A stretch of DNA of 64,000 bases, from assembly GCA_013203045.1 (NCBI GenBank), contig JABMQN010000275.1, positions 4,515-68,514 on the forward strand. Direction: 5' to 3'. This document shows positions 11,570-55,431 of the stretch, piece by piece; the stretch's first letter is position 1, and every line of letters starts with the position of its first letter. The position numbers and the translations under genes are program-made. The notes beneath the pieces were generated by a model. That model had not been told where the DNA came from. It searched no databases and worked only from the letters and a program-made list of their open reading frames with translations. Source of the DNA: Chloroflexota bacterium. Its GTDB lineage: Bacteria > Chloroflexota > Dehalococcoidia > SZUA-161 > SpSt-899.

Positions 11570-11866
11570 ATGAGTTTCACTGATAGAGAACTGCAATGCG
11601 CCGATTGTGGAGCAACGTTCACCTTTAGTGCTAACGAGCAGGAGTTCTTTGCCGAGAAGGGTTTCACCAACGATCCCAAACGCTGTCCTGACTGTCGTTC
11701 AGCCAGAAAGATGGAACGTGGTGACAGGCGTGGTCCCAGGCAAATGTACCCGGCCGTATGCGCCGAATGTGGTATCGATACCGAAGTGCCGTTCCTGCCC
11801 AAACAAGACAGGCCGGTATATTGCAGCCAGTGCTATAATAGCGTTGGCTCTGCAAGCAGGCGATAG
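11570..11866 (+). CDS. zinc-ribbon domain protein (zf-trcl-like, two CxxC pairs x2)
   Basis: MSFTDRELQCADCGATFTFSANEQEFFAEKGFTNDPKRCPDCR ... CAECG...CSQCY is the characteristic probable-zinc-ribbon family. An AAGGAGG RBS sits upstream. Confidence 0.7.
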   Translation: MSFTDRELQCADCGATFTFSANEQEFFAEKGFTNDPKRCPDCRSARKMERGDRRGPRQMYPAVCAECGIDTEVPFLPKQDRPVYCSQCYNSVGSASRR

Positions 11867-11985
11867 CCTCAAACACAACAAAGTGATGAAAGAGAGGCCG
11901 GGGCCAGTTTCCGGTCTCTCTTTTATGATATCATTGATGCAGGAGTGAGAGCCTGTGGACAACAGATTCTTTTGAGGAGGTTATC

Positions 11986-12351
11986 ATCACCAATAAGATT
12001 TTTGTAGGAAATCTGAATTTCGAAACGATGCGAAGCGATATCGAAGGTCTTTTTGCTCAGTCTGGCGGTGTTATTGACGTATCAATCCCAACCGACCGGG
12101 ATACCGGTCGTCCAAGAGGATTCGCTTTTGTGGAATTTGTCGATGAACCATCTGCCATGAAAGCTATCGAAATGTTCGATGGGTATGATCTGCAGGGCAG
12201 GACGCTTCGAGTGAATCTGGCAGAAAAGCAACAGCAGCGCCCTCGTAGCTTTAGCGATTCCGGTCCATCTGGTGGGGGGTATCAAGGTTCGCGCGGTTCC
12301 AAACCAAAGGGCAGTCGCCGTAATATTCGTGCTCAAAAACGTGGGTATTGA
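11986..12351 (+). CDS. RNA-binding protein, RRM domain (RNP-2 IFVGNL, RNP-1 RGFAFVEF) with Gly/Arg-rich tail
   Basis: The first ATG (12028) lies downstream of the RNP-2 motif KIFVGNLNF, which is encoded in-frame at 11995..12021. A strong GAGGAGG at 11974..11980 points to a non-canonical start (ATC/ATT) near 11986; see findings. Confidence 0.7.
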   Translation: MTNKIFVGNLNFETMRSDIEGLFAQSGGVIDVSIPTDRDTGRPRGFAFVEFVDEPSAMKAIEMFDGYDLQGRTLRVNLAEKQQQRPRSFSDSGPSGGGYQGSRGSKPKGSRRNIRAQKRGY

Positions 12352-13567: not shown

Positions 13568-13610
13568 ATAAAAGGGCGGGTTTTCAAACCCGCCCTTTAA
13601 CCTTCTTTTA
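13568..13610. terminator. bidirectional intrinsic terminator between convergent SDR (+) and GNAT (-) genes
   Basis: AAAGGGCGGGTTTtcaaAACCCGCCCTTT is a perfect 13-bp stem flanked by A/T runs on both sides. Confidence 0.7.
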
Positions 13611-14130
13611 GGGAAGCAACAGCTTCCATCTCAATAAACTCCTGCCCTTTCCTTACAATACGGCCACATGGAGTAAATCCACATCTTTCAAAGCATTCCT
13701 GCGCCCTGATATTCCATTCCAAAGTATGTAGAAATATCCTTTTCATCCCCATATCTTCAAAAATATGTTGCATCAGGGTCTTCACTGCGTCGGTGCCGTA
13801 TCCTTTTCCCCAGTATTCCCGATCGCCGATCAAAATGCCCATTTCTGCTTCTTTGCTCACCTTATCAAAGTTATAGCAAACACAATTGCCAATATGTTCA
13901 CCACTCAGCGTTTCAATGGCAAATTGCTTTTTGTCTAGATCACTTATTCCTTCATGATAGGCTACTAAGTATACAGAAAAAGGTATTTGGTAGGTTTCAG
14001 CAGCATCTAGACGTGTGAGCTCACGGTCAGTAGCCCAAGCATAATCGTTACTTGCATCCTCAAGTTGCTTTTCGCGCAGGATTACTTTCTGGCCATATAA
14101 CCGCTTGACTTGCCCTTCGTTCGTCATCAT
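13597..14130 (-). CDS. GNAT-family N-acetyltransferase (RimJ/RimL-like)
   Basis: 177 aa with an acetyl-CoA-binding region IGDREYWGKGYGTDAVKTL. Confidence 0.75.
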   Translation of the reverse strand: MMTNEGQVKRLYGQKVILREKQLEDASNDYAWATDRELTRLDAAETYQIPFSVYLVAYHEGISDLDKKQFAIETLSGEHIGNCVCYNFDKVSKEAEMGILIGDREYWGKGYGTDAVKTLMQHIFEDMGMKRIFLHTLEWNIRAQECFERCGFTPCGRIVRKGQEFIEMEAVASLKEG

Positions 14131-14412
14131 TGTTGCTATTCTATGGCCCGTTCCAGATGTGTGTCAAGAAAAGTGATGCATGATTCGTTTCCCTTAATAG
14201 AGAAAGTTTCCTAACAAACTGGGAAGTTTGTATCACCGGTTTGTACATATAGTCAAGCCGATATCTCCATCAAGAACTGACAACTACATCTTGATTCGAC
14301 TATAAGAGGTTTGAACTTAAACATTCAGATACTCGAGGTCTCACGTAATACCAGGACTGGCATTTCACTCTACAGCTAGAATGGATTCGTGAAAAACTGC
14401 TGAGATGCTAGT

Positions 14413-15051
14413 TCATAGGGACAATAGTTCATCCAGCTCAGCAATGGCGAGAGAGAGATCGTTTCCCACATGAACTGTTTGCATACCAAGCGAGCTTGCA
14501 GCTTCAATGTTGGCCGGGAAGTCATCGAGAAAAACGGTGCACTCTGGAGTCAATCCGCCCAAGCGTTCCAAAGTGATCCGGAATATCTTCGGATCAGGCT
14601 TTCGTATTCCCTCGTGGCTGGAATCTACCACCAAATCGAACAGGTCATCAACTGGCAAGAGTCCCCGCCAGCCATCAGAAAACTCCCTGATATTATTGGT
14701 AAGCAAGGCAGTAGGGTAACCTTTCTTCTTGAGGTCTGCCACCCGATCCACCAGTTCGTAGCGCAAGCCAGCATCGCGGGGCATCTTTTCGAAGAACTGA
14801 TAGATATCTACCTCCAGACCACAAATTTCATGACCTAGATGGAGGATTTCATCGCGCGCCTGCTCCAAAGTGATTTCACCACGCTCCAGGCAATGCCATG
14901 GATGGTCGCTGTCTTCCGCAGGGGGGCCAAACATAATTTCAACAATTTGTCCCGGTGCAGCGCCGAGTTCTGATCCTAGGTCTTCGCAAGAGGGCAACGG
15001 AGATGCGGTAAATACACCTCCGAAATCAAATATCACAGCATCGATTTTCAC
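14413..15051 (-). CDS. HAD-superfamily hydrolase (subfamily IA)
   Basis: Motif I KIDAVIFDFGGV and HAD motifs II-IV. I prefer a GTG start at 15051 (AAGGTG RBS, giving MKIDAVIFDFGGV) over the track start at 15117, because the latter would overlap the upstream gene by 53 nt. Confidence 0.7.
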   Translation of the reverse strand: MKIDAVIFDFGGVFTASPLPSCEDLGSELGAAPGQIVEIMFGPPAEDSDHPWHCLERGEITLEQARDEILHLGHEICGLEVDIYQFFEKMPRDAGLRYELVDRVADLKKKGYPTALLTNNIREFSDGWRGLLPVDDLFDLVVDSSHEGIRKPDPKIFRITLERLGGLTPECTVFLDDFPANIEAASSLGMQTVHVGNDLSLAIAELDELLSL

Positions 15052-15064
15052 ATTAGGCACCTTA

Positions 15065-16228
15065 TCAAATACGTCGTTTCGATTCCTCAAGGATCGGCAG
15101 GAAAACATTGCGTTCATTAGGCTTCATCTGAATCACATCATCCGGACAATGCAATGCACATAATCCACAGCCGCAGCACATTTCCGAGTTTATCACGGCA
15201 ATACCTTCCTCGCCAACTGCAATCGCGCTGACAGGACAGTACTCTTCGCATGTGCCGCATCCGGTGCAAGCATCCGGATCAACAATATTGGCAATATAAT
15301 ACGCTTTCAGCATAAATGGGATGATCCCTCGATTATAGTTACCAAAAGCTGCGCAGCAATCCCAGCAACAATTGCACAGGATATCAACATCATACTTGGC
15401 ATTGAAATCCTTGAGCGGCATGAGCCTGCCGACCTGGTGAATGCACCCTTTTTGCTGGTATTCCTTAATAAGCCGAATCGCCTCCTCTTTAGTAATACGG
15501 CGCGCAATGCCACGATTGATCAAGTGCTCTGCCGCAGGACCCAAAGCCATGCAGCTTTCATATGGGAGATGCTGCCTGCACGGGTCCCCATCCACCCTAC
15601 GATGTTCCCGGCAAAAGCAATGACTGAGAGTGATCACTTCGTCTTCGTCCAGCTTCTCAAAAATGTTAAGAATACTATGAGCCGGGTAGATCTCATTTAC
15701 GTCCGGGCGTACAGCCTCTTGAACAGGTATGATCTTGGAACCATCCGGATTCACCACGGCCAGGGAACGATGGGGGGCTACGTCCTGCATGACCTCGTTG
15801 ATGATCTCAGGGGGAATGGCCTTAGCCGCATTAAAGAAGGTAATGAGGCGTTTGCAAAATTCCTGTCTATCCGGCGTATTGGCTCCTCTCATTATATACA
15901 TTTCGAACCAGCCCGGGAAGATGGACATTAAATGGTAAATAGGCTCAGTATCACCCTCTGCCGGTGATGGCTGAGCGATATGGGTTTTATCCAGCAGGAT
16001 ATTGAATATACGATCGAACTCCTCTTTAGTAAGGCTAACTCGCTCTTCTATATCCGCACGTGTCCTGTTCCCGCCACCCATTTTGAGAAGGAAATCGACC
16101 TCCTCCGGTTCCAGCGCCGGATCGAAGACGTATAGCAGGTCATCCGTAACCATGGTAGGTGCTTCGGACTGTTCATTCATCAGGTTTGCCAGTTCCGCCA
16201 GCTTGTCCTTATTATTCTTGAATTCCAT
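15065..16228 (-). CDS. Cys-rich iron-sulfur protein with C-terminal 2x[4Fe-4S] ferredoxin domain (paralog of 21661..22632)
   Basis: CTGCGTCEEYCP and CCGCGLCALHCP are two CxxCxxCxxxCP motifs. An unusual cluster LCNCCWDCCAAFG is also present. The N-terminal ~250 aa are of unknown function. Confidence 0.6.
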   Translation of the reverse strand: MEFKNNKDKLAELANLMNEQSEAPTMVTDDLLYVFDPALEPEEVDFLLKMGGGNRTRADIEERVSLTKEEFDRIFNILLDKTHIAQPSPAEGDTEPIYHLMSIFPGWFEMYIMRGANTPDRQEFCKRLITFFNAAKAIPPEIINEVMQDVAPHRSLAVVNPDGSKIIPVQEAVRPDVNEIYPAHSILNIFEKLDEDEVITLSHCFCREHRRVDGDPCRQHLPYESCMALGPAAEHLINRGIARRITKEEAIRLIKEYQQKGCIHQVGRLMPLKDFNAKYDVDILCNCCWDCCAAFGNYNRGIIPFMLKAYYIANIVDPDACTGCGTCEEYCPVSAIAVGEEGIAVINSEMCCGCGLCALHCPDDVIQMKPNERNVFLPILEESKRRI

Positions 16229-16282
16229 TGCTCATTCCTCCGTTTTAGCCTTGTTTATTCCAGCGTGTAAACACGCCCTTTT

Positions 16283-16750
16283 CTACGTGATAGGTTCTAT
16301 GCTTACCCCACGCTCGACTGCTTTTTCCTGATATGAAGTGTACGTTTGAGTGACTTTTCCCCCCGTACTACCGGCAAGAAGATGGTTTGTTAAAATTGCC
16401 AGATCCCAGTATTCACGCCACACCGCAATCTTGCCATCACATATCACAAATGAATCCATCACTGGAACCATAACAGAACTGCCGTCTTTCAGGAAAGTCA
16501 GCTCTTCGCGTTCGAGTAATACAATGTCACCTTCCCCGACTATGTTGAGCAGCTTTCCTTCAAAATGATCGCACATATCTCGATAGGCATCAAGGATAGC
16601 ATAGATTTCATCTGGTCCCTGAACTGAAGGGCCTTTATCACATCGGTTCTCGTAAATTGCATCTTCTGTGAACCACTCCCGCGCCATGTCAGGAGTAAGG
16701 ATATACCACTCTAATGCGCAACGAGTGGTAAGGTCTTTGTTAGCCGACAT
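16283..16750 (-). CDS. NTF2-like / SnoaL-fold protein (limonene-epoxide-hydrolase-like size and fold)
   Basis: 155 aa with an alpha+beta cone-fold signature (EWYILTPDMAREWFTEDAIYEN...) and no other domains. Confidence 0.5.
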   Translation of the reverse strand: MSANKDLTTRCALEWYILTPDMAREWFTEDAIYENRCDKGPSVQGPDEIYAILDAYRDMCDHFEGKLLNIVGEGDIVLLEREELTFLKDGSSVMVPVMDSFVICDGKIAVWREYWDLAILTNHLLAGSTGGKVTQTYTSYQEKAVERGVSIEPIT

Positions 16751-16807
16751 GCTAATACCTCCTCAGTAACGCTGTTGCCCACGGTTTTTATCGCGAAACT
16801 CGGACTG

Positions 16808-18181
16808 TTATCCATCTAACTTTGCGATAACATCCTCGAGCAGATGGAGCACAGCGTGATCACCATCAATTTGAAGTTCGCCGCTCGTCCAGGCATGAAA
16901 CTGGTTCATCTCCCCTTTTCGAATCGCTGCCCAGATTTCAGCCGGCATGGTAACTGTAGTGGTGGGATTTGCAGCCATTCCCTCATGACGGCTCACGCTA
17001 CCGTTTTCACAAATCAGATACCAGTCAGTTGCCTCAGGTCCGGTAAGCCGATACTGAACCGTTGCCTCCAGATCCTCAATTCTGGTGATCTCTCTCCCCG
17101 CCGTGCCAGGAACCGGCAAGTTGAGTATTCTGGCGAGATACTGGGTGCAGAAATTATCTCTATCAGGATCATCGCCAGGCAGTGAAACACCTATCTGCTT
17201 CAGGTTCCGCTGAACCTTGACCACATGCAAACCCATAACACACGCTGCCCGGACCTCATTGTAGAAATAATGTTTTACTTTCCTGCCGGTTAACTCTTCG
17301 TATCGCTGAATGGTCTCTTCTTTGCTCGGGAAGCCATCTAGCCTCGGGACACCGATACCCTCACCTAATAGATAATCAGTAGTAATGAGAAACGCCAAAT
17401 CTGATTCGGGGTCTCCGATGTGAGAGATATCCCAGTCCAGCAATCCTAACAAGTCTCCTGCCGGGCTAAAGATCGAATTGGGAAACCGGGCATCGCCCCA
17501 GCACAACGAGACATGTTCAGGCTCATACCGATTCTCTTTGAGCCAGGCCAGCGCTGCTTCAAGGATTGGGTGTGTTTCGTCTGGAGTATCTTTAGTCCAA
17601 TCGAGGAATTTCTCCCAGCGGTCAAGGTCCTGATCTACCGGACCGGTGCCATGGGGGGGAATCGTAAGGAAAGAGAAGTCCATACTCTTCCAGTCCAACG
17701 TATGCAAACGGGCCATGCCTTCGATGAGTTGCCACCACATCTTTTCCCGTAATTCGGGACTGGCGTCATAGCAAATCCCAAAAGAGTGATAAGGCGGGAA
17801 TTCGGAGGGCACAGTGCCATCTAGTTTGTTCATTAGGTAAAACGGTGTGCCGAAAATGCTTGTATCGCTTTCAAACCAGTAAACCCTGGGCGCCGGAACA
17901 TTCGTATTTCCCAGCTGTTCCAGTATGCGGAATTGCATCTCGACCTTAGGTTCCGGATAGATGGGATAGACCGTGCCTTCACATCTTAGAATCATCCCAG
18001 CGGACTTGTGTTCCCCGCCTTCATCCCATGACAGGTCGAAGAGGAAACTTTCGTTGGTAAAGCCTGCCCCTGATCGTTCTAAATCCGAAATCGCGAAATT
18101 CGAGGCTTGGGGCATCTTCTTTCGAAGCCAGCCCAGAAGTTTCGATTGCATGTCCAGCAGGTCAACGTCACGGGACATCAT
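16808..18181 (-). CDS. APH-like phosphotransferase (ACAD10/11-kinase-like) fused to C-terminal SCP2 sterol/lipid-binding domain
   Basis: Brenner-like catalytic segment LCWGDARFPNSIF and the metal-binding motif LLDWDISHIGDPESD. The C-terminal ~100 aa (TGPEATDWYLICENG...MNQFHAWTSGELQIDGDHAVLHLLE) is SCP2-like. Confidence 0.7.
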   Translation of the reverse strand: MMSRDVDLLDMQSKLLGWLRKKMPQASNFAISDLERSGAGFTNESFLFDLSWDEGGEHKSAGMILRCEGTVYPIYPEPKVEMQFRILEQLGNTNVPAPRVYWFESDTSIFGTPFYLMNKLDGTVPSEFPPYHSFGICYDASPELREKMWWQLIEGMARLHTLDWKSMDFSFLTIPPHGTGPVDQDLDRWEKFLDWTKDTPDETHPILEAALAWLKENRYEPEHVSLCWGDARFPNSIFSPAGDLLGLLDWDISHIGDPESDLAFLITTDYLLGEGIGVPRLDGFPSKEETIQRYEELTGRKVKHYFYNEVRAACVMGLHVVKVQRNLKQIGVSLPGDDPDRDNFCTQYLARILNLPVPGTAGREITRIEDLEATVQYRLTGPEATDWYLICENGSVSRHEGMAANPTTTVTMPAEIWAAIRKGEMNQFHAWTSGELQIDGDHAVLHLLEDVIAKLDG

Positions 18182-18192
18182 GTCGCACCTCT

Positions 18193-18251
18193 TTTTCGTA
18201 GCGCGACCCTTCAGGATCGCTTTTTGGCGGGGCTAAAGCCTCGCGCTACAT
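18193..18251. repeat. palindromic extragenic repeat copy A (TIR TTCGTAGCGCGA ... TCGCGCTACAT)
   Basis: Its 11-bp terminal inverted repeats and the core CCTTCAGGATCGCTT match the longer copy at 32068..32189. Confidence 0.55.
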
Positions 18252-18259
18252 GTTAATGA

Positions 18260-20224
18260 TTATGCCAGGAGACTTCTTGTTTCTAGGTCATCAGCGATAT
18301 CACCAAGGTTAAGTCCTTCCATCTGTGCCTTCGTTTGCAGACCAGTGGCCACGTCCCATCGCCGCAGTTCGTAGTACTCATCTTTCATTTTCTCGAACTT
18401 CTCTCGATCGATAACCTCACCCTTTCGAGAGACCACTTCCCAATTCTTTCCGGGAACCTGGCAGTGAGGATTCGAAATATCATAATTCAACGGCACATTG
18501 TAACATTGATCAGAAAGGATATCGAAGTCTCTCCCTCGGTGACCTTCCCTGACAAGAATTGCCCTTTGCAGATTAAATATTCTCTCCCCAACTTTGTATA
18601 GCCCTACCTCATCTATCTCATTACCCGTGACTGCGGAAAGAAGCTTGCTTTCCAGCGTGGGATCGCCAACGTGGTCCTCAGTGTTGGGCAGATCAGTCAG
18701 AGGCCATATATAGTCGCATAGAATAAGCGATTCTTTCACATATTGCCGATCCTGGATCATTTTTGCTGCCAATGCTTTGCCTTCGTAAGTCGAGAAATCT
18801 GCGGCGATCTCACTTCCCCAGAACCTTTTGGCAATCGCACGGAGCACATCAGTGGTGACGTGGCCCAAACCCATTGTAGCTGAGACTGTCCAGAGAGGAA
18901 GAAGCAATCCTACTTCATGGATTTGCTGGATAGGAATCCGCGGTTCCATGGCATATGGGAACGCATTCGTTATGTAGAGTCGCGGTCCATATATGTCAGT
19001 GCCGGGCTCATCCAGATAGCCAGCCAGTTCGAGCTCTCTGATCGCATCAGGGCCAACTGCTTCTGCAGCTTTCTCGATCCCTTGAGCAAGTATATCCCCA
19101 AAGCCTTCTCTGAAGGCGATCTTGCGTATCAGAGTCTCGATGTACTCCTGACTTCCCAGCTTTGAGAGCGGGATGCCGGTGCTTGCATCGGTGAGGATAC
19201 CAGCTTTATAACAACGCTCAAGCCAGTTGATTAATAAATCAACAGCCACAGCATCGAGCCCGAGATCATCACAAAGCTTATTGGCAATAAACGGGACGTC
19301 ATTCCAGTCTTCGTAATACTCGTCGGTGTGCGGCTGATAGAAAAAGGCGGAGTGGCACACGAATTTCCCCTTCTTGCCATCCTGAGCCACGTACACTTTT
19401 CGAGGACACCTGCCAATACATCCGTAGCATGGCTCTTTTTTCATATCCTGGTTGGGGACAACCTTGAAATCCGCAATGATATCCCTTGACCATCTGCCCA
19501 GGTATTCGGTGAAACCCCTTTCCAGGGCTTTGTAATACTGAGTCAGTTCTTTCAGCCTTTCCGGACTGGCTACATTCGATCCCTTCTTGGTACCTTTCAC
19601 TACAACTGCTTTGAGATTCTTTGAACCCATTACAGCACCCAATCCACCAGTACAGACAGCATCATTATCCGCGGTCAGGATAGCCGCTACACACATGTTC
19701 TCGCCAGCGGGGCCAATCGCCACTACTCGTGCAGAGTCCCCCAGCTCATCTTTAAGAATTTGCCTGGTTTCGATGGCACCTTTTCCCAAAAGACTGGAAG
19801 CACCTTTCAGTTCTGCGGATTCTTCATCGAAGCGGATATAGACTGGCTTTTCGGACTTCCCATGGATCACTATGGCATCGTAGCCAGCAAACTTCATTTC
19901 GGCTCCGAACCGACCTCCCAGGTTGCCATAGGAGAACGATTCCGGAATTGGCTCGGGAGATTTTCCACAGATGGTCCACCGTGAACCACCGATCACTGGG
20001 ATTCCGCAAAGTGGCCCAGTGGCAAATATAAGTCTGTTTTCGGCATCAAAGGCGCCGATTTCCGGGGGAACCTCGTCCCAGTAGATTTTGGCTGCGATTC
20101 CCCTCCCCCCCAGGAATCTGTCTGCATAGTCTGCGGTGGAGGTCTCGGTTATTTTTCCCGAAGTTAGATCGATCCGAAGGATCTTTCCTGCATATCCGAA
20201 TGATGTCATTTCTCTGCCTTTCAT
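18260..20224 (-). CDS. aor: tungsten-containing aldehyde:ferredoxin oxidoreductase (AOR family)
   Basis: FGYAGKILRIDLTSGKI N-terminus plus the pterin- and [4Fe-4S]-binding regions typical of AOR. ~650 aa. The real start is probably MTSFGYAGK at 20209. Confidence 0.85.
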   Translation of the reverse strand: MKGREMTSFGYAGKILRIDLTSGKITETSTADYADRFLGGRGIAAKIYWDEVPPEIGAFDAENRLIFATGPLCGIPVIGGSRWTICGKSPEPIPESFSYGNLGGRFGAEMKFAGYDAIVIHGKSEKPVYIRFDEESAELKGASSLLGKGAIETRQILKDELGDSARVVAIGPAGENMCVAAILTADNDAVCTGGLGAVMGSKNLKAVVVKGTKKGSNVASPERLKELTQYYKALERGFTEYLGRWSRDIIADFKVVPNQDMKKEPCYGCIGRCPRKVYVAQDGKKGKFVCHSAFFYQPHTDEYYEDWNDVPFIANKLCDDLGLDAVAVDLLINWLERCYKAGILTDASTGIPLSKLGSQEYIETLIRKIAFREGFGDILAQGIEKAAEAVGPDAIRELELAGYLDEPGTDIYGPRLYITNAFPYAMEPRIPIQQIHEVGLLLPLWTVSATMGLGHVTTDVLRAIAKRFWGSEIAADFSTYEGKALAAKMIQDRQYVKESLILCDYIWPLTDLPNTEDHVGDPTLESKLLSAVTGNEIDEVGLYKVGERIFNLQRAILVREGHRGRDFDILSDQCYNVPLNYDISNPHCQVPGKNWEVVSRKGEVIDREKFEKMKDEYYELRRWDVATGLQTKAQMEGLNLGDIADDLETRSLLA

Positions 20225-20255
20225 ACAGCCTGTAAAAAACTGAAATTATATTTGA

Positions 20256-21626
20256 CTATGACTGGGTGAACTCTGCGATTACGTCTTCAAGGAGCGAGAG
20301 TAGTCCCAGATCACCTTCAGTCACCAGTCTACCCGTTGTCCATGCGTCTATCTGGTTCAGTTCCCCAGCACGAATTGCCTTCCAATCCTCGAGTGAGGCT
20401 TTGATGGTACAATTCGGATTCTCAATAATGCCCTCGTGTCGAGTTCCCTTGCCTTTGTCTGAAATCAAATACCAGTCACTTCCACCGGGTCCGGTGAAGC
20501 GAAACTGGACACTGACAGTCACTTCGTTGATGTCCGTAATAACTTCTTTCTTCTCACCCGGAGGCGGCAACTGCAAAAGGTCAGCCAGATGCTGGGTAGA
20601 GAAGTTATTGAAAAGCAAGTCGTCTTCGATTGGCATGCCTTGTGAGCGGAACCTCTTCAGAGCAGAAATCACGGTCAAACCATATCGAAAGGTGGCCATG
20701 ACTTCGTTGTAGAAGAGGTTCTTGACCTTCCACCCGGTGAGTTCCTCGTATCTGCGGACAATCTCCTCATCCTCCGGTGTTCCGGGCAAACGCGGTAGCC
20801 CGTAACCTTTGCTGTGTTGTTTATCCAGAGTGAAGAACCAGGCCAGGTCAAATTCCGGGTCCCCAATGAAGACCATCTCCCAGTCCATAATGGCCAGCAC
20901 GTCTCTCTCTGGAATACTATAGAGCGTATTTCCAATGCGGGCATCTCCCCAGCACAGACAGATGCGCTCCGGTACATAGCGGTTTTCCTTAAGCCATTCC
21001 AGAGTGGCTTCCATGGTCGGGTGCGATTCCTGAGGATCATCTTTCACCCAGTCGTTTAAGTAGCTGTCCCAGTAGATTAGCTGTTGATCGATAGGATCGG
21101 TGCCCCCACCTGGTATTTTGAGGAAGTCGATACCCATGTTTCTCCAGTCCAGTTTGTGGATCTCGGTTATCGCTTCAAGACATCCCCACCACATTTTGGC
21201 ACGTTTTTCAGGTGTGGCTTCAAAATACATCCCAGATCCGTGATACGAAGGATAATCCTGGGGAACATCCCCTTCCAGTTTCTCCATAAGGAAGAACGGA
21301 ACCCCAATAATAGCAGGGTCTTCTTCCAGCCAGAGCATTTTGGCCACCGGCACTTTCGTGGGATATAAAATCTTCATAGTTCGGAACTGGAGACCGAGAT
21401 CATATTCAGGGAAACTCCCCTGGCCCCATGGTGCGGCCCGGAGAACTACGCCCATTGATTTTTTCTCGCCGGATTCCTCCCATTCCATATCAAACAGATA
21501 GGTTTCGCTGGAGAGGCCCATGCCGGGTTTGTTTAAATCACTAATCGATATTTTGTCAGCCTGGGGCATCTTCTTTTGAACCCAGGCAGTGAGCTTAGCT
21601 TGAATTTCGGAAAGGTCCGGCTCCAT
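20256..21626 (-). CDS. APH-like phosphotransferase fused to C-terminal SCP2 domain (paralog of 16808..18181)
   Basis: Same architecture as 16808..18181: CLCWGDARIGNTLYS, IMDWEMVFIGDPEFD, and a C-terminal SCP2-like FRFTGPGGSDWYLISDKG...AWTTGRLVTEGD. Confidence 0.7.
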   Translation of the reverse strand: MEPDLSEIQAKLTAWVQKKMPQADKISISDLNKPGMGLSSETYLFDMEWEESGEKKSMGVVLRAAPWGQGSFPEYDLGLQFRTMKILYPTKVPVAKMLWLEEDPAIIGVPFFLMEKLEGDVPQDYPSYHGSGMYFEATPEKRAKMWWGCLEAITEIHKLDWRNMGIDFLKIPGGGTDPIDQQLIYWDSYLNDWVKDDPQESHPTMEATLEWLKENRYVPERICLCWGDARIGNTLYSIPERDVLAIMDWEMVFIGDPEFDLAWFFTLDKQHSKGYGLPRLPGTPEDEEIVRRYEELTGWKVKNLFYNEVMATFRYGLTVISALKRFRSQGMPIEDDLLFNNFSTQHLADLLQLPPPGEKKEVITDINEVTVSVQFRFTGPGGSDWYLISDKGKGTRHEGIIENPNCTIKASLEDWKAIRAGELNQIDAWTTGRLVTEGDLGLLSLLEDVIAEFTQS

Positions 21627-21660
21627 TGCAATCTCCTATCGATTCATTCAGAATCACAGT

Positions 21661-22632
21661 TTAGGCGGGTTTTAGCGCGCTCTTGATTTCATCTAAATCC
21701 AGCGGTTCGCCCTTGGAAGGATCAAGACGAAGACTGATTGCTCCATCAGGACATACGCCTTCACAACCACCGCATCCCATACATTTTTCAAGATCGATGA
21801 CAGGTTGCTGCTTTTCTTCATCCATTTTCATACAATCGAAGTTGCATGAATCCACACACGTACCACATCCTGTGCATACATCAGTATCTACTTCGGCAAC
21901 ATATCCAGATGGAACCAGGAAGCATAGATCCCCCATTGCCTTGGCCATCGGGATTCCGCCCATCAGATTCCACATCTTCACACCCATGCAGCAGCAACTG
22001 CAACAATTGCAGATAGCGAAAAACCGACTACCAATTTCCCTCTTGAAATAAGCACAATGGACTTCGCCGCGCTTATGAGACTCCTCCAATACCTGAACTG
22101 CCTCTTCCGGCGTAATCTTGCGGAACTTTGGATTCAGGTCCGCAATGAACTGGGCAGCCGGGTCCCCCACCATCAGGCACACTTCCATTGGGTAGGGCAA
22201 GCATGGATTATCCGAATTCAACCGGCATCCGCACGGGCCAATTGCAAGAGACTGTGGATTCTGCAGGATAACATCTCTGGCGATTTTCCAGGGAACCACT
22301 TGTTCCGGCAAGGGCATATTAAGATCTTCTTTCTGTGATACCAATTTGACCGCATCGAGGAATTTCACTACTTTCGTATGGTATATATCCGTTTCCGGAC
22401 CTCCTTGAGCCCCCTCTGCAATCTCCTTGACATAGGCCTCCAGCATCTCCGCGATTCCTTCTTCCAGTGGACCCAAATCCTCATGGACGATTTCTTTGTA
22501 AGGCAAATCAATATCCCTGCAGGCGATGGATGCGAATCGATTGATGTACTTCAGATACATGTACCCGCCAAAGAAATCATTCCGATTTTCCGGACCAAAC
22601 ATGTTGAAAAATTCTTCCGTCGAATTATGCAT
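21661..22632 (-). CDS. Cys-rich iron-sulfur protein with C-terminal 2x[4Fe-4S] ferredoxin domain (paralog of 15065..16228)
   Basis: CTGCGTCVDSC and CMGCGGCEGVCP are the ferredoxin motifs. A cluster ICNCCSCCCMGVK matches LCNCCWDCC in the paralog. Confidence 0.6.
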   Translation of the reverse strand: MHNSTEEFFNMFGPENRNDFFGGYMYLKYINRFASIACRDIDLPYKEIVHEDLGPLEEGIAEMLEAYVKEIAEGAQGGPETDIYHTKVVKFLDAVKLVSQKEDLNMPLPEQVVPWKIARDVILQNPQSLAIGPCGCRLNSDNPCLPYPMEVCLMVGDPAAQFIADLNPKFRKITPEEAVQVLEESHKRGEVHCAYFKREIGSRFFAICNCCSCCCMGVKMWNLMGGIPMAKAMGDLCFLVPSGYVAEVDTDVCTGCGTCVDSCNFDCMKMDEEKQQPVIDLEKCMGCGGCEGVCPDGAISLRLDPSKGEPLDLDEIKSALKPA

Positions 22633-22664
22633 ATTAATCCCCTTTATCTTAATTCATTTAAAAT

Positions 22665-23840
22665 TCAGTTTTCTGATTCCGTAGCTATTTGCTCCGTGAG
22701 TGTTCCGTATGTACCATATCCTTCATAACCGTACTTGAGGTATTTGCCCGGGATCATTAACTCCGTAGTCCCATATCCCACATCTCCGTCGCAGGTGAAT
22801 TTTGAACCATAGTCGCAGTATCCCCAGATCTCCTTCATTACCTCAGGATCGCTGACATTCAGTTTGTAACCATCCATCCACTGCGGCCCCATCCACAAAC
22901 CGTGAATGAATCCCTTGTAAAGCCCCCCGTATCCACCGGGCGACTGGTAGCAAATGGTTATCGGCTCAATGGTGACTTCTTTGGTTGTACCGTCGATGGC
23001 TGTCATCACCACTTTCCCACCGGAAAAGCGTCGCAGTTGCTCTGGTTTCTCATCGCTAAACTCAAAGTAATGCTCGACGTTTGCTAACTCCAGCGGTTCT
23101 TTATTACTCCCGTATGGATAGTAAAGTCCACCACTGAAATGCCATCTTCTGGGCATGTTTAAATTGTCATCCCAGATCTCCCGAATGTGAAAGGTGGCAC
23201 CCCAATCCTGAAATTGCATCAGTACAAAATTGAAAAGTTGTCCAGCGTGAATCTCCGGGAACTGCACACCGGTTTCTACGAAATCCGCTCCGGCCATTCT
23301 GACACCCCAAGATCGATCCCTTTCACCCACCCACTTCTCTTTATTAAGCTGAAAGGTCTCGTCGCCAGCCTTGATCCACCCGGTTGGTCTTCCGCTCTGG
23401 ACCATGCGCTTAATATTCTCTCTTTCCCTGCCACGGCTGATTTGCTGCTGGGCACCCTCTTCATACAGGGGACTTACCCCATCCAATTCTATGTCATAGC
23501 TCAATCCATACTCGTTCTCATCGAGCTTGAACCTGACTTTCTTTAATGGCTCAGTCACCTCGTAGGAAAACGGACCGACTTTGAAAACGCCGATGTCAGG
23601 TCTGAGTTCGCGCGAGGCACGCACAATGTACTCCGTTTCATCCCGAATTGTGAAGCACACATAGGCATCCATTACGTTCCGATTGGGGTAGTACCCGAAG
23701 CCGGTAGCAATGTGAGCTGTGCCATCGATATCGTGCACCTGGAGCCAGGATCTTTCCGTCCATTCTCTGGCACTCGTGCCGGGACGGTCGAATGTTGATA
23801 CCGCCTGATGGCAGAACAGCTCGTCATATTTGGTAATCAT
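22665..23840 (-). CDS. hypothetical protein (unrecognised fold; Gly/Tyr-rich C-terminus)
   Basis: 391-aa ORF running co-directionally within the gene array. I recognise no motif. Confidence 0.45.
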   Translation of the reverse strand: MITKYDELFCHQAVSTFDRPGTSAREWTERSWLQVHDIDGTAHIATGFGYYPNRNVMDAYVCFTIRDETEYIVRASRELRPDIGVFKVGPFSYEVTEPLKKVRFKLDENEYGLSYDIELDGVSPLYEEGAQQQISRGRERENIKRMVQSGRPTGWIKAGDETFQLNKEKWVGERDRSWGVRMAGADFVETGVQFPEIHAGQLFNFVLMQFQDWGATFHIREIWDDNLNMPRRWHFSGGLYYPYGSNKEPLELANVEHYFEFSDEKPEQLRRFSGGKVVMTAIDGTTKEVTIEPITICYQSPGGYGGLYKGFIHGLWMGPQWMDGYKLNVSDPEVMKEIWGYCDYGSKFTCDGDVGYGTTELMIPGKYLKYGYEGYGTYGTLTEQIATESEN

Positions 23841-23869
23841 AGTTGATCCTCCTTCTTACGTACTGGTTA

Positions 23870-24673
23870 CTATTCCAAACCCATGAGCCTCGTTATTCCA
23901 AAGCGATGGCCAACAGTGAATCCGCCATCGACCATCAGTGCATGCCCGGTTATGAATGAAGCTTCATCCGATGCCAGGAAAAGGACTGCGTTGGCGATCT
24001 CCTCTGGGCGTCCAATCCTTCCTAGTAGAATAGCTTCGATGATGTGGTCGCGGAAGTCCTTGAGGATTTCGTTATCCAGCACCGTTTCTGAAGCCAATGG
24101 CGTATCAACAAATCCGGGACAAATCGTATTCACCCGAATGCCTTTACGAGCATAGTCCATGGCCATGTTCCGGGTGAGCAGGATGACGCCACCCTTGGAG
24201 ACATTGTACGCACTCCCCCCCTCAGAACCTTCAATCCCCTCGATACTCGAGATATTTACAATGCTGCCGGAGCCCTGCTCGACCATCTGTCCGACTGCGT
24301 ATTTACACACGAGGAAAGTTCCCTTGAGATTGATGTCCATCACGCGATCCCATTCTTCCGTGGGAAGCATATGTACCGGTCCGCCACTTGCTATACCCGC
24401 GCAGTTCACAACGATATCAAGACGACCAAACCGTTTCACAGTTCCTTCTATAACACTTCGGATGCGTTCCTCATCTCGGACGTCGCCGATTTCAAAATAG
24501 GATTCCGGGGCAATTTCGACGGCCTTTTTCCAAGTGTCATTCGTAGTCTCGCCGATATCGAAGCCCACAACCCATGCCCCCTCCTGAACAAATCGCAATG
24601 CACATGCAGCTCCTATCCCTGAAGCAGCACCTGTTATGAATGCCACCTTGTCTTTCAATCGAGTCATGTTCAA
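23870..24673 (-). CDS. short-chain dehydrogenase/reductase
   Basis: ITGAASGIGAACA, NCAG, and YNVSK motifs. Confidence 0.85.
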   Translation of the reverse strand: MNMTRLKDKVAFITGAASGIGAACALRFVQEGAWVVGFDIGETTNDTWKKAVEIAPESYFEIGDVRDEERIRSVIEGTVKRFGRLDIVVNCAGIASGGPVHMLPTEEWDRVMDINLKGTFLVCKYAVGQMVEQGSGSIVNISSIEGIEGSEGGSAYNVSKGGVILLTRNMAMDYARKGIRVNTICPGFVDTPLASETVLDNEILKDFRDHIIEAILLGRIGRPEEIANAVLFLASDEASFITGHALMVDGGFTVGHRFGITRLMGLE

Positions 24674-24691
24674 TCTCCAAATGACTTGCTT

Positions 24692-25114
24692 TTATTCTGA
24701 ACGGACCAGTCGAGAGCCGAAAGCGACTGTCTCTGCATATGCCGTATCAGGGAATTCGAATACCTCAACAACCTTCTCATCCTTAAAACGGAAAAAGAAT
24801 ACATATAAATTATTGTAGTCATTTCCCGTTTTTGTCTTTGCTTCCCCTCGTGCCCGAACTACGACTGTATTTCCTTCAGCGATCAGTTCTTCCGGATGTA
24901 CCATTATATACTCAAGCTGTTCGAAGAAGCTGAGCCACATATTCATGATTTGTTCTTTGCCATGAAACGTACCAGATACCGGCATATCACCCGGTACTAC
25001 ATATTGAACATCATCGGCAAATATTTCAAGTAAATCCGGGTCCGAAGCATTAAGCTTTTCAAAGTACCGGATGATTGCTTCTTTGTACTGATTTTTCATT
25101 GCTTGGCTTTTCAA
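24692..25114 (-). CDS. NTF2-like / SnoaL-like (ketosteroid-isomerase-like) protein
   Basis: 140-aa cone fold, comparable in size and pattern to SnoaL/KSI-like proteins. Confidence 0.5.
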   Translation of the reverse strand: MKSQAMKNQYKEAIIRYFEKLNASDPDLLEIFADDVQYVVPGDMPVSGTFHGKEQIMNMWLSFFEQLEYIMVHPEELIAEGNTVVVRARGEAKTKTGNDYNNLYVFFFRFKDEKVVEVFEFPDTAYAETVAFGSRLVRSE

Positions 25115-25153
25115 TTACAGGCTGCTGTCTATAATCAGGATTTCATTTTGCTG

Positions 25154-25666
25154 CTATTGCCCAAGGGCTTCCAGCAATGCTCCTCTATTCTTGGCCCAAC
25201 CTTCATTATAGGGGCTAATGTAGTTCCATTTCGTCTTTATCGAATCGAATTTCCACCTGCCATCTTCCCTTACATACTCCTCGAAGTATGTTCCCATCAT
25301 CCATTGAGCTACACCCGTTGAAGTATCGGTGGTCGGAGCTTCATAATACCAGCGACCTGTCGCTCTATCACCATCCACTTCGATGATCGGATTATGTACC
25401 ATATGAATGCAGAAGGAAACCGCTCCCGGGACAACTTCCCCGAAGAATACTTTCAATCCTTCGGGGCCCTCAAAATGAGATCCCTCGCCAAGACCGAAGT
25501 CTACTTTGGCACCTTTAGTGAAGTGGGAAATCAGTTCATCTCGATTCTTGGGATCATCCAAGCCTGCATCGCACAAATAGCAATATGTAGCCTTGAGCTT
25601 CTTAATTTCTTCGATATCCTCCAGCACCTTGATCCGTGCTTCCAAATCTTCCAGGGTCATATACAA
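25154..25666 (-). CDS. NTF2-like protein (SnoaL_4 / DUF4440-like)
   Basis: 170 aa. The N-terminus MTLEDLEARIKVLEDIEEIKKLKATYCY is typical of SnoaL_4. Confidence 0.5.
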   Translation of the reverse strand: MYMTLEDLEARIKVLEDIEEIKKLKATYCYLCDAGLDDPKNRDELISHFTKGAKVDFGLGEGSHFEGPEGLKVFFGEVVPGAVSFCIHMVHNPIIEVDGDRATGRWYYEAPTTDTSTGVAQWMMGTYFEEYVREDGRWKFDSIKTKWNYISPYNEGWAKNRGALLEALGQ

Positions 25667-25804
25667 TCCTCCTTTGGGTTCTTCGGGAGTCTATCTCTAC
25701 ATCACTCAAAAACGGAAAAAGGAACCCTGATGCAAGTTTGCCACAAACAGCGAAAAAAACAACGCTGCTTTAGTGAGTATAAAACGCGTAGAACATACTA
25801 CGCA

Positions 25805-26752
25805 TTATTCGATGGAAAGCAGGTAGGTTCTGAGGTTGACCTTCTTGTTCGATATGCCAAGTTTCGTTCTGATGTTATATCGGTGAGTATCAACAGTCCT
25901 TGAAGATATGCCCAACTGGCTGGCAATTTCCTTCGCAGATTTACCCTGCTTAATAAGATTTGCTACCGTAATTTCCGTGGGAGTAAGCTTCAAGAACTTC
26001 ATGGAAGCACCATGTGGAAATGATAACGCAATTTCATGTAAGTTGGTCTCTAATTCGTCCAGGTAGGCGTGCTGAACTTGGTTCAAACTGGCCTTTTTCA
26101 ACTTCTCTAGATAAGGCAAAACGAATTCTTTCATGTTAGAAAGCACCTTATCTTCCAACTCCGTTTTCACCTCTTCCGACTTTTCCAGCATAACTCGCAG
26201 GGCAATATTCGCGTCTTCAAGGCTGGAAGTGCTCTCGCTTACCAATCTTTCCAGATCATCTTTATGCCTGCGCAGTAATTCCTGTTCCCGTTTGCGAGCA
26301 GTAATATCTCGAGTAATCGCGAGAATACCTTTGATTTCACCATTGCCACTAACCAACCGAGGGTTTACCTCAATAAAGACTTTAGTCCCGTTTTTATGCT
26401 TCGCCTGCAATTCCAATACCTGAGTCTCAGCGGTCTTTCCTTCAAGCAGTTCTTTGCTCAACTCAATGCAACGTTGCCAGTCCTCTGCACTCAAGGCGCC
26501 AAATTCGAAGAATTTCTTTCCTACAACCTCTTCTCGTTTATAGCCAAAGAGATCCTCCACCTTATCATTGACATCGATGACTGTTCCATCGGTACTGATA
26601 TAAACAATGTGGTCATTAGCATTTTCGAAGATTGTCTTGAATTTCTCCTCACTGTCTCGAAGTTGTCGGTTAGCCTCGATAAGCAGTGCATTCTGTTCCC
26701 GCGAACGTATCAACTGCTTTCTTGTTTCGTCATTGGTTAGCATGGTTCTCAC
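25805..26752 (-). CDS. PAS-domain LuxR-family transcriptional regulator
   Basis: PAS core EEKFKTIFENANDHIVYISTDGTVIDVN...ITARK. LuxR HTH LTPTEITVANLIKQGKSAKEIASQLGISSRTVDTHRYNIRTKLG. Confidence 0.75.
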   Translation of the reverse strand: MRTMLTNDETRKQLIRSREQNALLIEANRQLRDSEEKFKTIFENANDHIVYISTDGTVIDVNDKVEDLFGYKREEVVGKKFFEFGALSAEDWQRCIELSKELLEGKTAETQVLELQAKHKNGTKVFIEVNPRLVSGNGEIKGILAITRDITARKREQELLRRHKDDLERLVSESTSSLEDANIALRVMLEKSEEVKTELEDKVLSNMKEFVLPYLEKLKKASLNQVQHAYLDELETNLHEIALSFPHGASMKFLKLTPTEITVANLIKQGKSAKEIASQLGISSRTVDTHRYNIRTKLGISNKKVNLRTYLLSIE

Positions 26753-27028: not shown

Positions 27029-28327
27029 TTATGGTGCCTCGAGAATAGCAACCCACTCATTGTTATACCTGAAAACATCTTCTTCTGCTGCCCGAATCTG
27101 GTACATACCAAGATGATCAACAGCCGTTCGTCGTGACTCATTGAAACCAAATTCAAAACCATCGATAGTCATATTAAACGACTTTGCAGCCTGATAAAGG
27201 GCCTCAGAATCGAATTTCTCCGGGCCTACAGCCTCAACTGCATCAGCTATGACCTCCAGCATGATGTATATGGGCATTACAGAAATGTATCCGTTACCCA
27301 TTCGAATAGTCTCTTCAGCATCGATTTCAGAATGATTCTCATAAAGCAATGTCCTGGCCAGATTGATCAAGGTACTATCTTCGGTCCACCACCACGGAGA
27401 CTGTATTATCAGCATCTCATCGACTTCAGTCCAAAGGTCCGCGTCATCTATCAACCCCAGAAATGCGCCATGTGCATCAGTACCAATGAGTTTTGCCTTA
27501 TGGCCTGCGTCTCGGAACTCCTTTACAAAATTGTTCATTGGAACAGGTGGCAACACATAATCACAGTCTTTCAATGCCGCTATTTCAGGCCCCCAAGTAA
27601 AAGTGAACCCAGTTAAATGTCCGCCATCCCACTCATACAGCTCCGGATGTTCTTTCGCGTATTTCTCAGATCCACCTAGAATTTCTTCTCCGTAAGCTTC
27701 GGCCCAATAAGCTCCACCGATTACAGCCGGCCTGTCTTTAGGAAAACGAGGATCGTTTTCAGCGATCCATTTGAGAAGGGTATAGCTAATATCCCTGGGG
27801 AAAGTGTTTGCGGGACAAAATGCATGTCCCGGAGGCAACAGTCCCTCTTTACTTGGAGCCAGAGCAAACAACACCATCCCATCGTCCTCGATACGAGGCC
27901 TGAGCGTTTCAGTCGTCGATGGCAAGGGGGCAAAAATCAGATCTGCATCTCTCCTTTTGAGCCACTCATATCCAGGGATATCTTTTGCAGGATCAAATTG
28001 CCCATCGTACAAAACTACCTTTAATTCGACTCCCGGGATAAGGTTTTCATCATTATAGTATTCAATCATATCTTCCAATGCCATGTTTACGATACTCATC
28101 GCATTTGAGGCAACGCCCGTAATATCCGTTAAATTCCCGATTGTTATTACCTTGTCTTCCACAGTAGGTGAAAACGTAGGTATCGACGTTGGTTCAATTG
28201 TAACTGATACAGTGGGAACCGATGTGTTCTCACTCTCGTTATTATCCCCACATGCAATCGTTAAAAGTAGCATCAAACACAACGATACACAAACAGTTAT
28301 TCTAATCTCTCTGGAAGCCCTTCCCAT
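27029..28327 (-). CDS. PBP1-type (Liv-like) solute-binding lipoprotein, orphan (no cognate permease adjacent)
   Basis: Lipobox LLLTIACG, a TP-rich linker, and a type-I periplasmic-binding-fold body. It is paralogous to 55432..56709. Confidence 0.65.
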   Translation of the reverse strand: MGRASREIRITVCVSLCLMLLLTIACGDNNESENTSVPTVSVTIEPTSIPTFSPTVEDKVITIGNLTDITGVASNAMSIVNMALEDMIEYYNDENLIPGVELKVVLYDGQFDPAKDIPGYEWLKRRDADLIFAPLPSTTETLRPRIEDDGMVLFALAPSKEGLLPPGHAFCPANTFPRDISYTLLKWIAENDPRFPKDRPAVIGGAYWAEAYGEEILGGSEKYAKEHPELYEWDGGHLTGFTFTWGPEIAALKDCDYVLPPVPMNNFVKEFRDAGHKAKLIGTDAHGAFLGLIDDADLWTEVDEMLIIQSPWWWTEDSTLINLARTLLYENHSEIDAEETIRMGNGYISVMPIYIMLEVIADAVEAVGPEKFDSEALYQAAKSFNMTIDGFEFGFNESRRTAVDHLGMYQIRAAEEDVFRYNNEWVAILEAP

Positions 28328-38906: not shown

Positions 38907-38918
38907 AGGAGTGATGCC

Positions 38919-40172: not shown

Positions 40173-40187
40173 ATAGAGGAGTAAGAA

Positions 40188-55137: not shown

Positions 55138-55431
55138 TAGCCTAAAAAGTGTTCGCCGGCACCCAAACGCCGGCGAACACATCATACTCCCTTTTTTCCG
55201 TTCAACTGAAAATATTCGACCTTTTTTGAGTTCGAATAGTCTTACGTATTTCCTCAAACACATCTGCATTCCCTCATGTCCCTCTGTTGCGTATTTCTTA
55301 AACTGTTTATCAATTCCTGGGAGCATGTTTGATTTATTATTCTCAGTTCTGGTACTATCTCTTTTATAATCGTCCTATAATAGATAGTGAGTGGTTATGG
55401 ATTTAAGATACGACAACTCTGTGGGGAGAGA

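Follow-up and report, generated by a model that had tools for sequence, protein, structure and literature searches.

To our knowledge, only one denitrifying bacterium has yet been shown to dehydrate unactivated alcohols with the use of ATP. In Sterolibacterium denitrificans, 25-hydroxysteroid kinase (25-HSK) and the lyase 25-PSL dehydrate 25-OH-steroids in an ATP-dependent manner (PMC8449060, PMC7411048; structures 9fsg, 9fzn, 9g2i, and 9g4c in the Protein Data Bank [PDB]). Here we describe a minus-strand gene cluster with relatives of both enzymes in an uncultured Chloroflexota bacterium from sediment, of the class Dehalococcoidia. It occupies positions 13597-26752 of a 64,000-nucleotide stretch (GCA_013203045.1, contig JABMQN010000275.1, positions 4,515 to 68,514 of the forward strand), which we call the window and whose numbering we use throughout. 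A preliminary description, made from the letters of the window alone, had listed 13 genes here and suggested that they act on a hydrophobic alcohol. All 13 open reading frames (ORFs) are present, and Pfam and NCBIfam profile searches agree with the domains then assigned. We consider it fairly probable that the operon dehydrates an unactivated, probably tertiary, hydroxyl group of a hydrophobic steroid-, bile-acid-, or isoprenoid-like substrate via a phosphoester, together with steps catalyzed by a short-chain dehydrogenase/reductase (SDR) and NTF2-fold proteins and redox steps catalyzed by a Cys-ligated tungsten/molybdenum (W/Mo) enzyme.

Central to this proposal is a 391-residue protein (22665-23840) that had been left without a function and that is, by sequence and predicted structure, a homologue of 25-phosphosteroid lyase (25-PSL), making it a putative phosphoester C-O lyase. 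It has no Pfam match and was identified via NCBIfam and the PDB instead. It matches the NCBIfam family Rv3169_fam at 298 bits (cutoff, 150), and phmmer aligns its residues 3-365 with the 25-PSL structures 9fzn, 9g2i, and 9g4c (E 3e-34), which were released in January 2026. An AlphaFold model derived from 13 homologues (pLDDT 79, pTM 0.82) superposes on 9g4c, 9fzn, and 9g2i with TM scores of 0.78-0.85 at 27% identity (Foldseek); these structures include a complex with phosphate and desmost-1,4-diene-3-one. The next-nearest folds in the same search are fungal Diels-Alderases and kievitone hydratase, an enzyme that interconverts a prenyl alkene and a tertiary alcohol.

The operon also encodes two kinases, each with an APH domain fused to an SCP2 domain (Pfam): KinA (16808-18181), the cognate kinase of the cassette, and KinB (20256-21626), an extra paralogue. 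The two are 48% identical. The best solved relative of both is 9fsg (E 3e-35 for KinA and 2e-40 for KinB), the sequence of which is 57% identical to a protein of Denitratisoma sp. DHT3 and 79% identical to a protein from a Sterolibacterium sp. metagenome-assembled genome (MAG). As the 25-HSK paper reports 55% identity of 25-HSK to the DHT3 protein, the sequence of 9fsg is consistent with 25-HSK of Sterolibacterium. The next match is Mycobacterium tuberculosis Rv3168 (3ats; E 4e-29 for KinA, range 4e-29 to 2e-36). The catalytic loop W228-G229-D230-x-R232-x-x-N235 and the pair D249-W250 are invariant in the window kinases, their Chloroflexota homologues, and the 25-HSK clade; written as patterns, these are WGDARxxN and DW(E/D), with D230, N235, and D249 catalytic and the D249 motif holding the Mg-binding Asp. 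KinA has at least 373 homologues. Both APH and SCP2 domains occur in all 120 of those listed, whereas none of the 120 listed proteins of the 25-HSK clade carries SCP2.

Since the 391-residue protein is a 25-PSL homologue and both kinases are closest to 25-HSK, the "phosphorylate then eliminate" logic of the preliminary description, along with its link to anaerobic sterol side-chain degradation, is supported as a predicted activity. In the 25-HSK/25-PSL system, the hydroxyl that is phosphorylated and then eliminated is the tertiary one at C25 of the steroid. Shared with 25-HSK/25-PSL are the APH-fold kinase, a lyase of the same fold, the catalytic motifs, and the expected course from alcohol to phosphoester to alkene. 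There are also differences. The window kinase is SCP2 fused, and identity is 25-27%. Kinase and lyase are adjacent in the window, whereas the 2021 paper had no lyase candidate near the Sterolibacterium 25-HSK gene. The partner is a Cys/Sec (selenocysteine) enzyme of the aldehyde:ferredoxin oxidoreductase (AOR) family rather than the type II DMSO-reductase hydroxylases S25DH/S26DH, Mo-dependent enzymes between which the Sterolibacterium pair works, and the host belongs to a strictly anaerobic Chloroflexota lineage rather than to the denitrifiers. The same kinase/lyase family pair exists in M. tuberculosis as Rv3168 and Rv3169, neighbors by locus number; that pair has neither the SCP2 fusion nor a W/Mo enzyme.

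Phosphorylation followed by elimination is also the logic of ACAD10/ACAD11 and LvaA/LvaC, and the ACAD10/11 precedent had been invoked for this locus. In a route of that type, the kinase would phosphorylate a 4-hydroxyacyl-CoA or a similar thioester to yield an enoyl-CoA. The comparison is weak, though some findings favor it. The HAD-family phosphatase-like protein (14413-15117) belongs to the sEH-N-terminal/ACAD10-type subfamily (NCBIfam TIGR02247, sEH-N-terminal-like phosphatase; 135.7 bits, cutoff 125.4), and ACAD10 too has a HAD domain of this kind. ACAD11 kinase domains are detectable as remote relatives of the window kinases (E 1e-13 to 1e-17), and some lyase loci hold genes for an ADP-forming acyl-CoA synthetase, a thiolase, and a CoA-transferase III. 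However, the kinases are far closer to 25-HSK and Rv3168 (1e-35 to 1e-40 for 9fsg), and the SCP2 fusion points to bulky lipids. Moreover, elimination in ACAD10/11 and LvaC is performed by an ACAD domain on a thioester-activated substrate, whereas the operon has no such domain (no Acyl-CoA_dh Pfam match among its products) and the eliminating enzyme has the 25-PSL fold. We regard a thioester route as quite unlikely.

Very improbable, in our view, is a chance neighborhood or a resistance/detoxification island in which APH antibiotic kinases and the GNAT acetyltransferase (13597-14130; Pfam Acetyltransf_3) share no pathway. Both kinases do match Pfam APH, KinA weakly matches aminoglycoside/macrolide phosphotransferase models (E 2e-4), and the GNAT protein has weak AAC(6') matches, but the scores against the resistance models are far under the cutoffs (21 bits versus 205 and 26-33 bits versus 250-400), and the antibiotic-resistance reading of APH and GNAT was rejected on this ground. 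Neither the SCP2 fusion nor the lyase partner has anything to do with antibiotic resistance, the GNAT gene has its own promoter-like site, and gene order is conserved in dozens of MAGs.

This conservation was assessed by scanning an alignment of lyase homologues over one genome per GTDB species, which gave 79 loci (each designated by L and a number), and by comparing all window proteins with them by tblastn. Fifty of the loci are informative, with at least 2.5 kb on each side of the lyase gene. The gene-neighborhood comparison proposed earlier bore out the pairing as genetic linkage: a kinase-SCP2 gene lies within 2.5 kb of the lyase gene in 36 of the 50, on the same strand every time, and a SnoaL_4 gene is near the lyase in 16. 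A four-gene core (SnoaL_4, AOR-family enzyme, lyase, and kinase-SCP2) recurs with unrelated flanks in L012, L013, L016, L020, L022, L024, L025, and L058, and in a different order in L045 and L050. A metagenome scan with an alignment of the AOR-family enzyme gave 80 loci, many on short contigs, with the kinase in 23, the lyase in 22, and SnoaL_4 in 21. As judged from these comparisons, the gene grouping exceeds chance: the order is kept in related MAGs, and the four-gene core is found in many loci, among them those of many Chloroflexota MAGs. Spread of the system extends over Dehalococcoidia, Binatia, Desulfobacterales-type, and Spirochaetota MAGs.

The closest genome found is an uncultured Dehalococcoidia MAG (SRP077602_co2_112), in which locus L005 is collinear with the window at ~85-97% protein identity and lacks KinB. 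Because KinB is absent there and the proteins most similar to it (61-75% identity) are encoded in other lyase-paralogue loci, KinB looks, by sequence, like a recent acquisition from a sister module. In the window, a search for other copies of the operon genes returned KinB and the second Fe-S protein only, with no further lyase, kinase, or W/Mo enzyme. The L005 MAG carries at least four lyase loci (L005, L037, L047, and L049), so the system is strongly expanded in it; L037 comprises a lyase, three Peripla_BP_6 proteins, four Fe-S protein genes, a W/Mo enzyme, and a kinase.

The redox partner of the pair is a 654-residue W/Mo-bis-pyranopterin enzyme of the AOR/WOR family (18260-20224), which had been taken to convert an aldehyde to an acid. 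Its family membership is clear from AFOR_N and AFOR_C (Pfam E 7e-65 and 2e-50) and from the [4Fe-4S] motif CxxCxxxC, of which C266, C269, and C273 are invariant. The N-terminal domain is typical of the family, and the catalytic domains are equidistant from PfAOR and BamB. In a profile alignment with AOR 9mqx, however, the sequence E-Y-E, which includes the catalytic Glu313, is replaced by C290-H291-S292; this comparison of the second shell (Thr243, Glu313, Tyr427, and His448) covers the Glu313 position, which is Ser292 here and S, A, or G across the clade. Cys290 (motif GKFVCHSAFF; codon 19355-19357) aligns exactly on the metal-ligand Cys336 of Escherichia coli YdhV when a profile of 16 orthologues is compared with that protein by hhalign (full length, 32% identity, E 2e-55), and a phmmer alignment puts it one to three residues away from BamB Cys322. 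According to a 2025 review of tungsten enzymes, the Cys ligand (BamB Cys322, YdhV Cys336) is confined to the BamB and YdhV clades, and these are without the second-shell Thr243, Glu313, Tyr427, and His448 of the aldehyde-oxidizing members; of the two, BamB acts as a reductase, while no activity is assigned to YdhV. A classification from 2026, which divides the WOR family into 92 clades, gives a physiological role for five, has benzoyl-CoA reductase as the sole non-aldehyde member, and mentions neither Chloroflexota nor kinases (PMC13328260). We doubt aldehyde oxidation because of the Ser at the Glu313 position and the Cys/Sec at the YdhV/BamB ligand position, whereas AORs in the strict sense have no protein ligand to the metal; judged by these residues, which are characteristic of the non-aldehyde branch of the family, the enzyme probably belongs to a Cys/Sec-ligated YdhV/BamB-like branch.

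With BamB and YdhV the enzyme shares domain architecture, including CxxCxxxC, the Cys at the ligand position, and the lost second-shell Glu. It is nevertheless distinct from YdhV, scoring 319 bits against a cutoff of 868 in NCBIfam PRK09849, and Pfam and window scans detected none of the BamCDEFGHI or YdhYWXUT partner genes in the window. It is partnered instead by Cys-rich Fe-S proteins of a new kind, by a kinase, and by a lyase, and some members of its clade probably carry Sec at the ligand position. Among 116 homologues (31-88% identity, 111 of them at least 54%), Cys290 is present in 106, and the other 10 have a TGA codon. These 10 come from three genomes and seven metagenome contigs and have the identical context GKFI*HSAFFYQ. 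In all 10, a hairpin, UAUCAACC-GUG-GGUUGAUA, begins 17 nucleotides past the TGA, whereas Cys-encoding orthologues with the same amino acids are without a stable hairpin. The in-frame TGA and the conserved downstream hairpin are why we read this codon as selenocysteine; the sequences thus indicate Cys/Sec exchange at the putative metal ligand. Such an exchange is known at the metal ligand of formate dehydrogenases. In the literature searched, we saw no mention of Sec for any AOR/WOR family member. TGA forms occur within the same cassette in L016, L018, L098, L110, and L114; the window gene itself has TGC at this codon and no in-frame TGA, and so is not a selenoprotein gene.

Relatives of the W/Mo enzyme are also found in other surroundings. 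Within L084-L163 (e.g., L127 935-1498, L131, L140, and L160-L162), loci without the kinase or lyase hold two or three paralogues each, at 57-62% identity. These are often beside DUF6125 proteins (14 loci, 27 copies), and some of their loci (L084 and L093) carry 2-hydroxyacyl-CoA-dehydratase-like HGD-D pairs instead.

The residues of the W/Mo enzyme also bear on a Sterolibacterium-like oxidative route, in which the alkene would become an allylic alcohol, the SDR would form an aldehyde, the AOR-family enzyme an acid, and a neighboring thiolase block would complete β-oxidation. The AFOR_N and AFOR_C domains, the SDR and thiolase nearby, and the fact that the Sterolibacterium pathway ends in C26 aldehyde oxidation (as described in the literature) all suit this scheme. 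Nonetheless, we consider it unlikely. The Glu313 position is Ser, the invariant Cys/Sec at the YdhV/BamB ligand position is reported only in clades lacking the AOR second shell, and no window gene would make the allylic alcohol. The thiolase block fares no better. The preliminary description had listed on the plus strand a thiolase, an HMGCS-like/DUF35 fusion, and four SDRs; this inventory was confirmed, but its membership in the pathway is weak. The thiolase scores above the cutoff of the acetyl-CoA acetyltransferase model PRK06157 (613 bits against 403), and the HMGCS-like part is similar to the HMG-CoA synthase of archaea. Synteny of the block with the cluster is confined to two close relatives, L001 and L005; across the 79 lyase loci, HMGCS-DUF35 is found in three and the thiolase in seven. 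The block looks like an archaeal-type acetoacetyl-CoA thiolase/HMG-CoA synthase pair and, with such limited synteny, was rejected as an unproven part of the pathway.

Within the SDR block, the region 11570-12351 encodes a zf_Tbcl-like protein (98 residues) and an RRM_1 RNA-binding protein (107 residues), both 80-96% identical in L001 and L005. These small conserved ORFs suggest a housekeeping rather than a catabolic neighborhood.

The remaining operon products differ in how widely they are conserved. The first operon gene encodes a SnoaL_4 NTF2-fold protein (25154-25666; Pfam E 5e-29) whose best solved relatives are structures of the bile-acid 7α-dehydratase BaiE (4l8o, 4l8p, and 4leh; E 3e-12). 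BaiE has catalytic Tyr30, Asp35, and His83, an assisting Tyr126, and substrate-binding Asp106 and Arg146 (PMC11110704). Tyr30, Asp35, His83, and Tyr126 are all identical in the window protein, and Arg146 falls outside the aligned region. The SnoaL_2 protein (24692-25114; Pfam E 3e-19), a candidate isomerase or hydratase, is kept only in the closest loci (L005, L010, L011/L109, and L106). The third NTF2-fold protein, similar to limonene-epoxide hydrolase (LEH) and SnoaL_2 (16283-16750; Pfam SnoaL_2 and LEH, E ~1e-9), is kept only in L005. The classical SDR (23870-24673; Pfam adh_short_C2, E 1e-72) has generic NCBIfam matches, none of them decisive on function; its orthologues are 70-90% identical and in the same position in L005, L010, and L011, and SDRs occur in 14-18 of the 79 genome lyase loci.

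Two Cys-rich Fe-S proteins, correctly recognized as paralogues, are 29% identical across ~190 residues. The 323-residue protein (21661-22632), which was scanned against Pfam and NCBIfam, ends in a 2x[4Fe-4S] ferredoxin domain (Pfam Fer4 families, residues 246-300), has the extra motifs CxC...C...C and CxCCxCCC and is a probable electron carrier for the W/Mo enzyme; its orthologues (76-92%) follow the lyase in L005 and L010. The 387-residue protein (15065-16228) has a C-terminal 2x[4Fe-4S] domain (Pfam Fer4, residues 315-368), to which its matches among solved structures are limited, with none on the N-terminal part. Of the 79 genome lyase loci, 14 encode Fe-S proteins of these types, and many of the 14 have two to four copies. 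The first 53 nucleotides of the HAD ORF are shared with the gene upstream, and from the sequence its true start is probably GTG at 15060 or 15051. The HAD protein is present in L005, and in L002 a HAD gene, not aligned with it, is oriented divergently next to the cassette.

Upstream of the regulator, a Peripla_BP_6 solute-binding lipoprotein (27029-28327, also on the minus strand; lipobox LTIAC) is possibly an uptake component. Its orthologue (88%) has the same position in L005, and paralogues stand beside lyase modules in L006, L010, L037, L043, and L047. Elsewhere in the window, a 46%-identical paralogue of this lipoprotein is encoded at 55387-56709, and fragments of the same type at 57753-58257 may be a decayed copy.

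The bile-acid (Bai) pathway, with the BaiA SDR, the Fe-S flavoenzymes BaiCD/BaiH, BaiE, and BaiF, is a second point of comparison, since the window shares BaiE catalytic residues and an SDR with it. Scans of the window detected no BaiB, BaiF, or BaiCD. The window redox enzyme is a W/Mo-pterin protein, and the Bai pathway is without ATP-dependent phosphate elimination. In sister loci, and only there, BaiCD-like flavoenzymes and family III CoA transferases, to which BaiF belongs, are found beside lyase and kinase. L164 and L009 have ~650-residue flavoenzymes and such transferases beside the SnoaL_4, lyase, and kinase genes; BaiCD (NF041087) is the best NCBIfam model for these flavoenzymes (590 and 578 bits over the full length, cutoff 825). 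In L106, a BaiCD-like flavoenzyme is upstream of the whole cassette. L165 alone has an EBDH/S25DH-type gene beside a lyase homologue: there, a 62%-identical lyase adjoins a 957-residue type II DMSO-reductase enzyme (TIGR03479, 956 bits; EbdA, 717 bits), the family to which the Sterolibacterium papers assign the steroid C25 hydroxylases. Mo-bisPGD enzymes of 700-750 residues occur in 7 of the 79 lyase loci. As W/Mo enzymes, BaiCD-like flavoenzymes, and EBDH/S25DH-type or Mo enzymes are all found beside the pair, the kinase-lyase pair is, on gene content, combined with at least three kinds of carbon-skeleton redox enzymes, two of which have characterized relatives that act on steroids.

A further variant is seen in Dehalococcoidia BLK2-2.bin.24, where L001 (922-6150, on the same contig as L006) has four genes between the lyase homologue and the W/Mo enzyme, encoding an APS kinase, a sulfotransferase, a 694-residue Mo-bisPGD enzyme, and a 373-residue unknown protein. 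Sulfation might be a second way to make a hydroxyl a leaving group in this locus.

In the dehydration pathway that we favor, the SCP2 domain would hold the hydrophobic alcohol, most likely steroid-, bile-acid-, or isoprenoid-like, while the APH-fold kinase would move the γ-phosphate of ATP onto the unactivated, probably tertiary, hydroxyl. The 25-PSL-type lyase would then eliminate phosphate to leave a C=C bond, so that kinase and lyase together would achieve ATP-dependent dehydration. The same skeleton could undergo ketone-assisted oxidation, dehydration, or shifts of double bonds through the SDR and the BaiE-like and other NTF2 proteins. The W/Mo enzyme, with the two Cys-rich Fe-S proteins as its electron wiring, would carry out a carbon-skeleton redox step and not aldehyde oxidation, either C=C reduction/desaturation, as in BaiCD/BaiH and BamB, or water-dependent C-H hydroxylation, as in S25DH/S26DH. 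Dead-end phosphoesters form according to the 25-HSK paper, and the HAD protein may hydrolyze such compounds. Homologies, conserved active-site residues, and gene linkage are what we observe in the sequences; from them we infer what class of substrate is used, in what order the steps run, which reaction the W/Mo enzyme catalyzes and in which direction, and what the HAD protein does.

Several observations weigh against this proposal. Identity to 25-HSK and 25-PSL is just ~25-27%, so substrate specificity is not transferable from them. The similarity to BaiE is moderate (E 3e-12), and the substrate-binding Asp106 aligns with Ala. Cys290 is a putative metal ligand, assigned from alignment and the Cys/Sec exchange, and linkage to the kinase and lyase holds for only part of the W/Mo clade, whose 57-62%-identical paralogues also occur without them. 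Pfam scans of the window detected no S25DH/S26DH-type (DMSO-reductase-family) genes, and neither a CoA ligase nor a CoA transferase is encoded in the operon. In motif I of the HAD protein, FDFGG, the Asp+2 general acid/base is replaced by Gly, making the phosphatase role uncertain. Finally, lipoproteins of the Peripla_BP_6 type are known mainly from amino-acid and organic-acid transporters, which makes a neutral sterol a less fitting substrate.

A more speculative extension, which we hold to be possible though rather unlikely, is that the cassette serves sediment Dehalococcoidia as a new, oxygen-independent means of deoxygenating or opening sterol, hopanoid, or isoprenoid alcohols. Dehydration would give an alkene, which the Cys/Sec-W enzyme would reduce or hydroxylate with water; on reduction, the alkene would serve as an electron sink. 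Sterenes and steranes are seen in young sediments, and this deoxygenation, if true, would be a biological route to them. With it, a Cys-ligated AOR-family enzyme besides benzoyl-CoA reductase would, for the first time, have a defined reaction.

The two enzyme families of the dehydration step, known from one organism, have hundreds of members here among metagenomic proteins of strictly anaerobic Chloroflexota and of other lineages found in sediment, which suggests a widespread oxygen-free attack on chemically inert lipid alcohols. From the tight genetic coupling follows a concrete hypothesis on the Cys-ligated branch of the AOR/WOR family, namely, that its substrate is the product or the precursor of the kinase/lyase reaction, and the Cys/Sec exchange adds a likely new selenoprotein family. 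The expectation that no described operon has this composition is upheld by the literature searched. There, papers on 25-PSL, Rv3168/Rv3169, AOR and selenocysteine in Dehalococcoidia, and selenocysteine in YdhV contained no description of the cassette; the SCP2 fusion, the cassette with its BaiE-like protein and Cys/Sec AOR-family enzyme, and its spread are not described.

From its layout, the likely operon probably comprises 11 genes plus the regulator, with GNAT as a separate transcription unit. From the SnoaL_4 gene (25666) through the HAD gene (14413), intergenic gaps are at most 78 nucleotides and no strong terminator was found within the run. The GNAT gene has a 282-nucleotide gap ahead of it and its own promoter-like site (11/12, 14167-14138). 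It is these gaps, the lack of an inner terminator, and the GNAT site that set the boundaries. A 12-bp bidirectional terminator (13571-13598) ends the region. Upstream of the operon, across a 138-nucleotide gap, is the PAS-LuxR (GerE) regulator (25805-26752; Pfam PAS_9/PAS_4 and GerE, NCBIfam sensory_box), which is 91% identical and in the same position in L005.

At the window edge, the gene of a second PAS-LuxR regulator (1120-1941) adjoins that of a protein with a B12-binding domain (318-1040). The region 60139-63995 encodes a B12-binding radical SAM enzyme (60139-61776) and a PAS/GAF histidine kinase, which shares 47% identity with the operon regulator in the PAS domain. The region 32417-41798 is a signaling block with CheR, CheB, a 1659-residue hybrid histidine kinase (dCache/HAMP/PAS/GAF), and two more hybrid kinases, and an 847-residue ORF at 52594-55137 has no Pfam match at E 1e-5.

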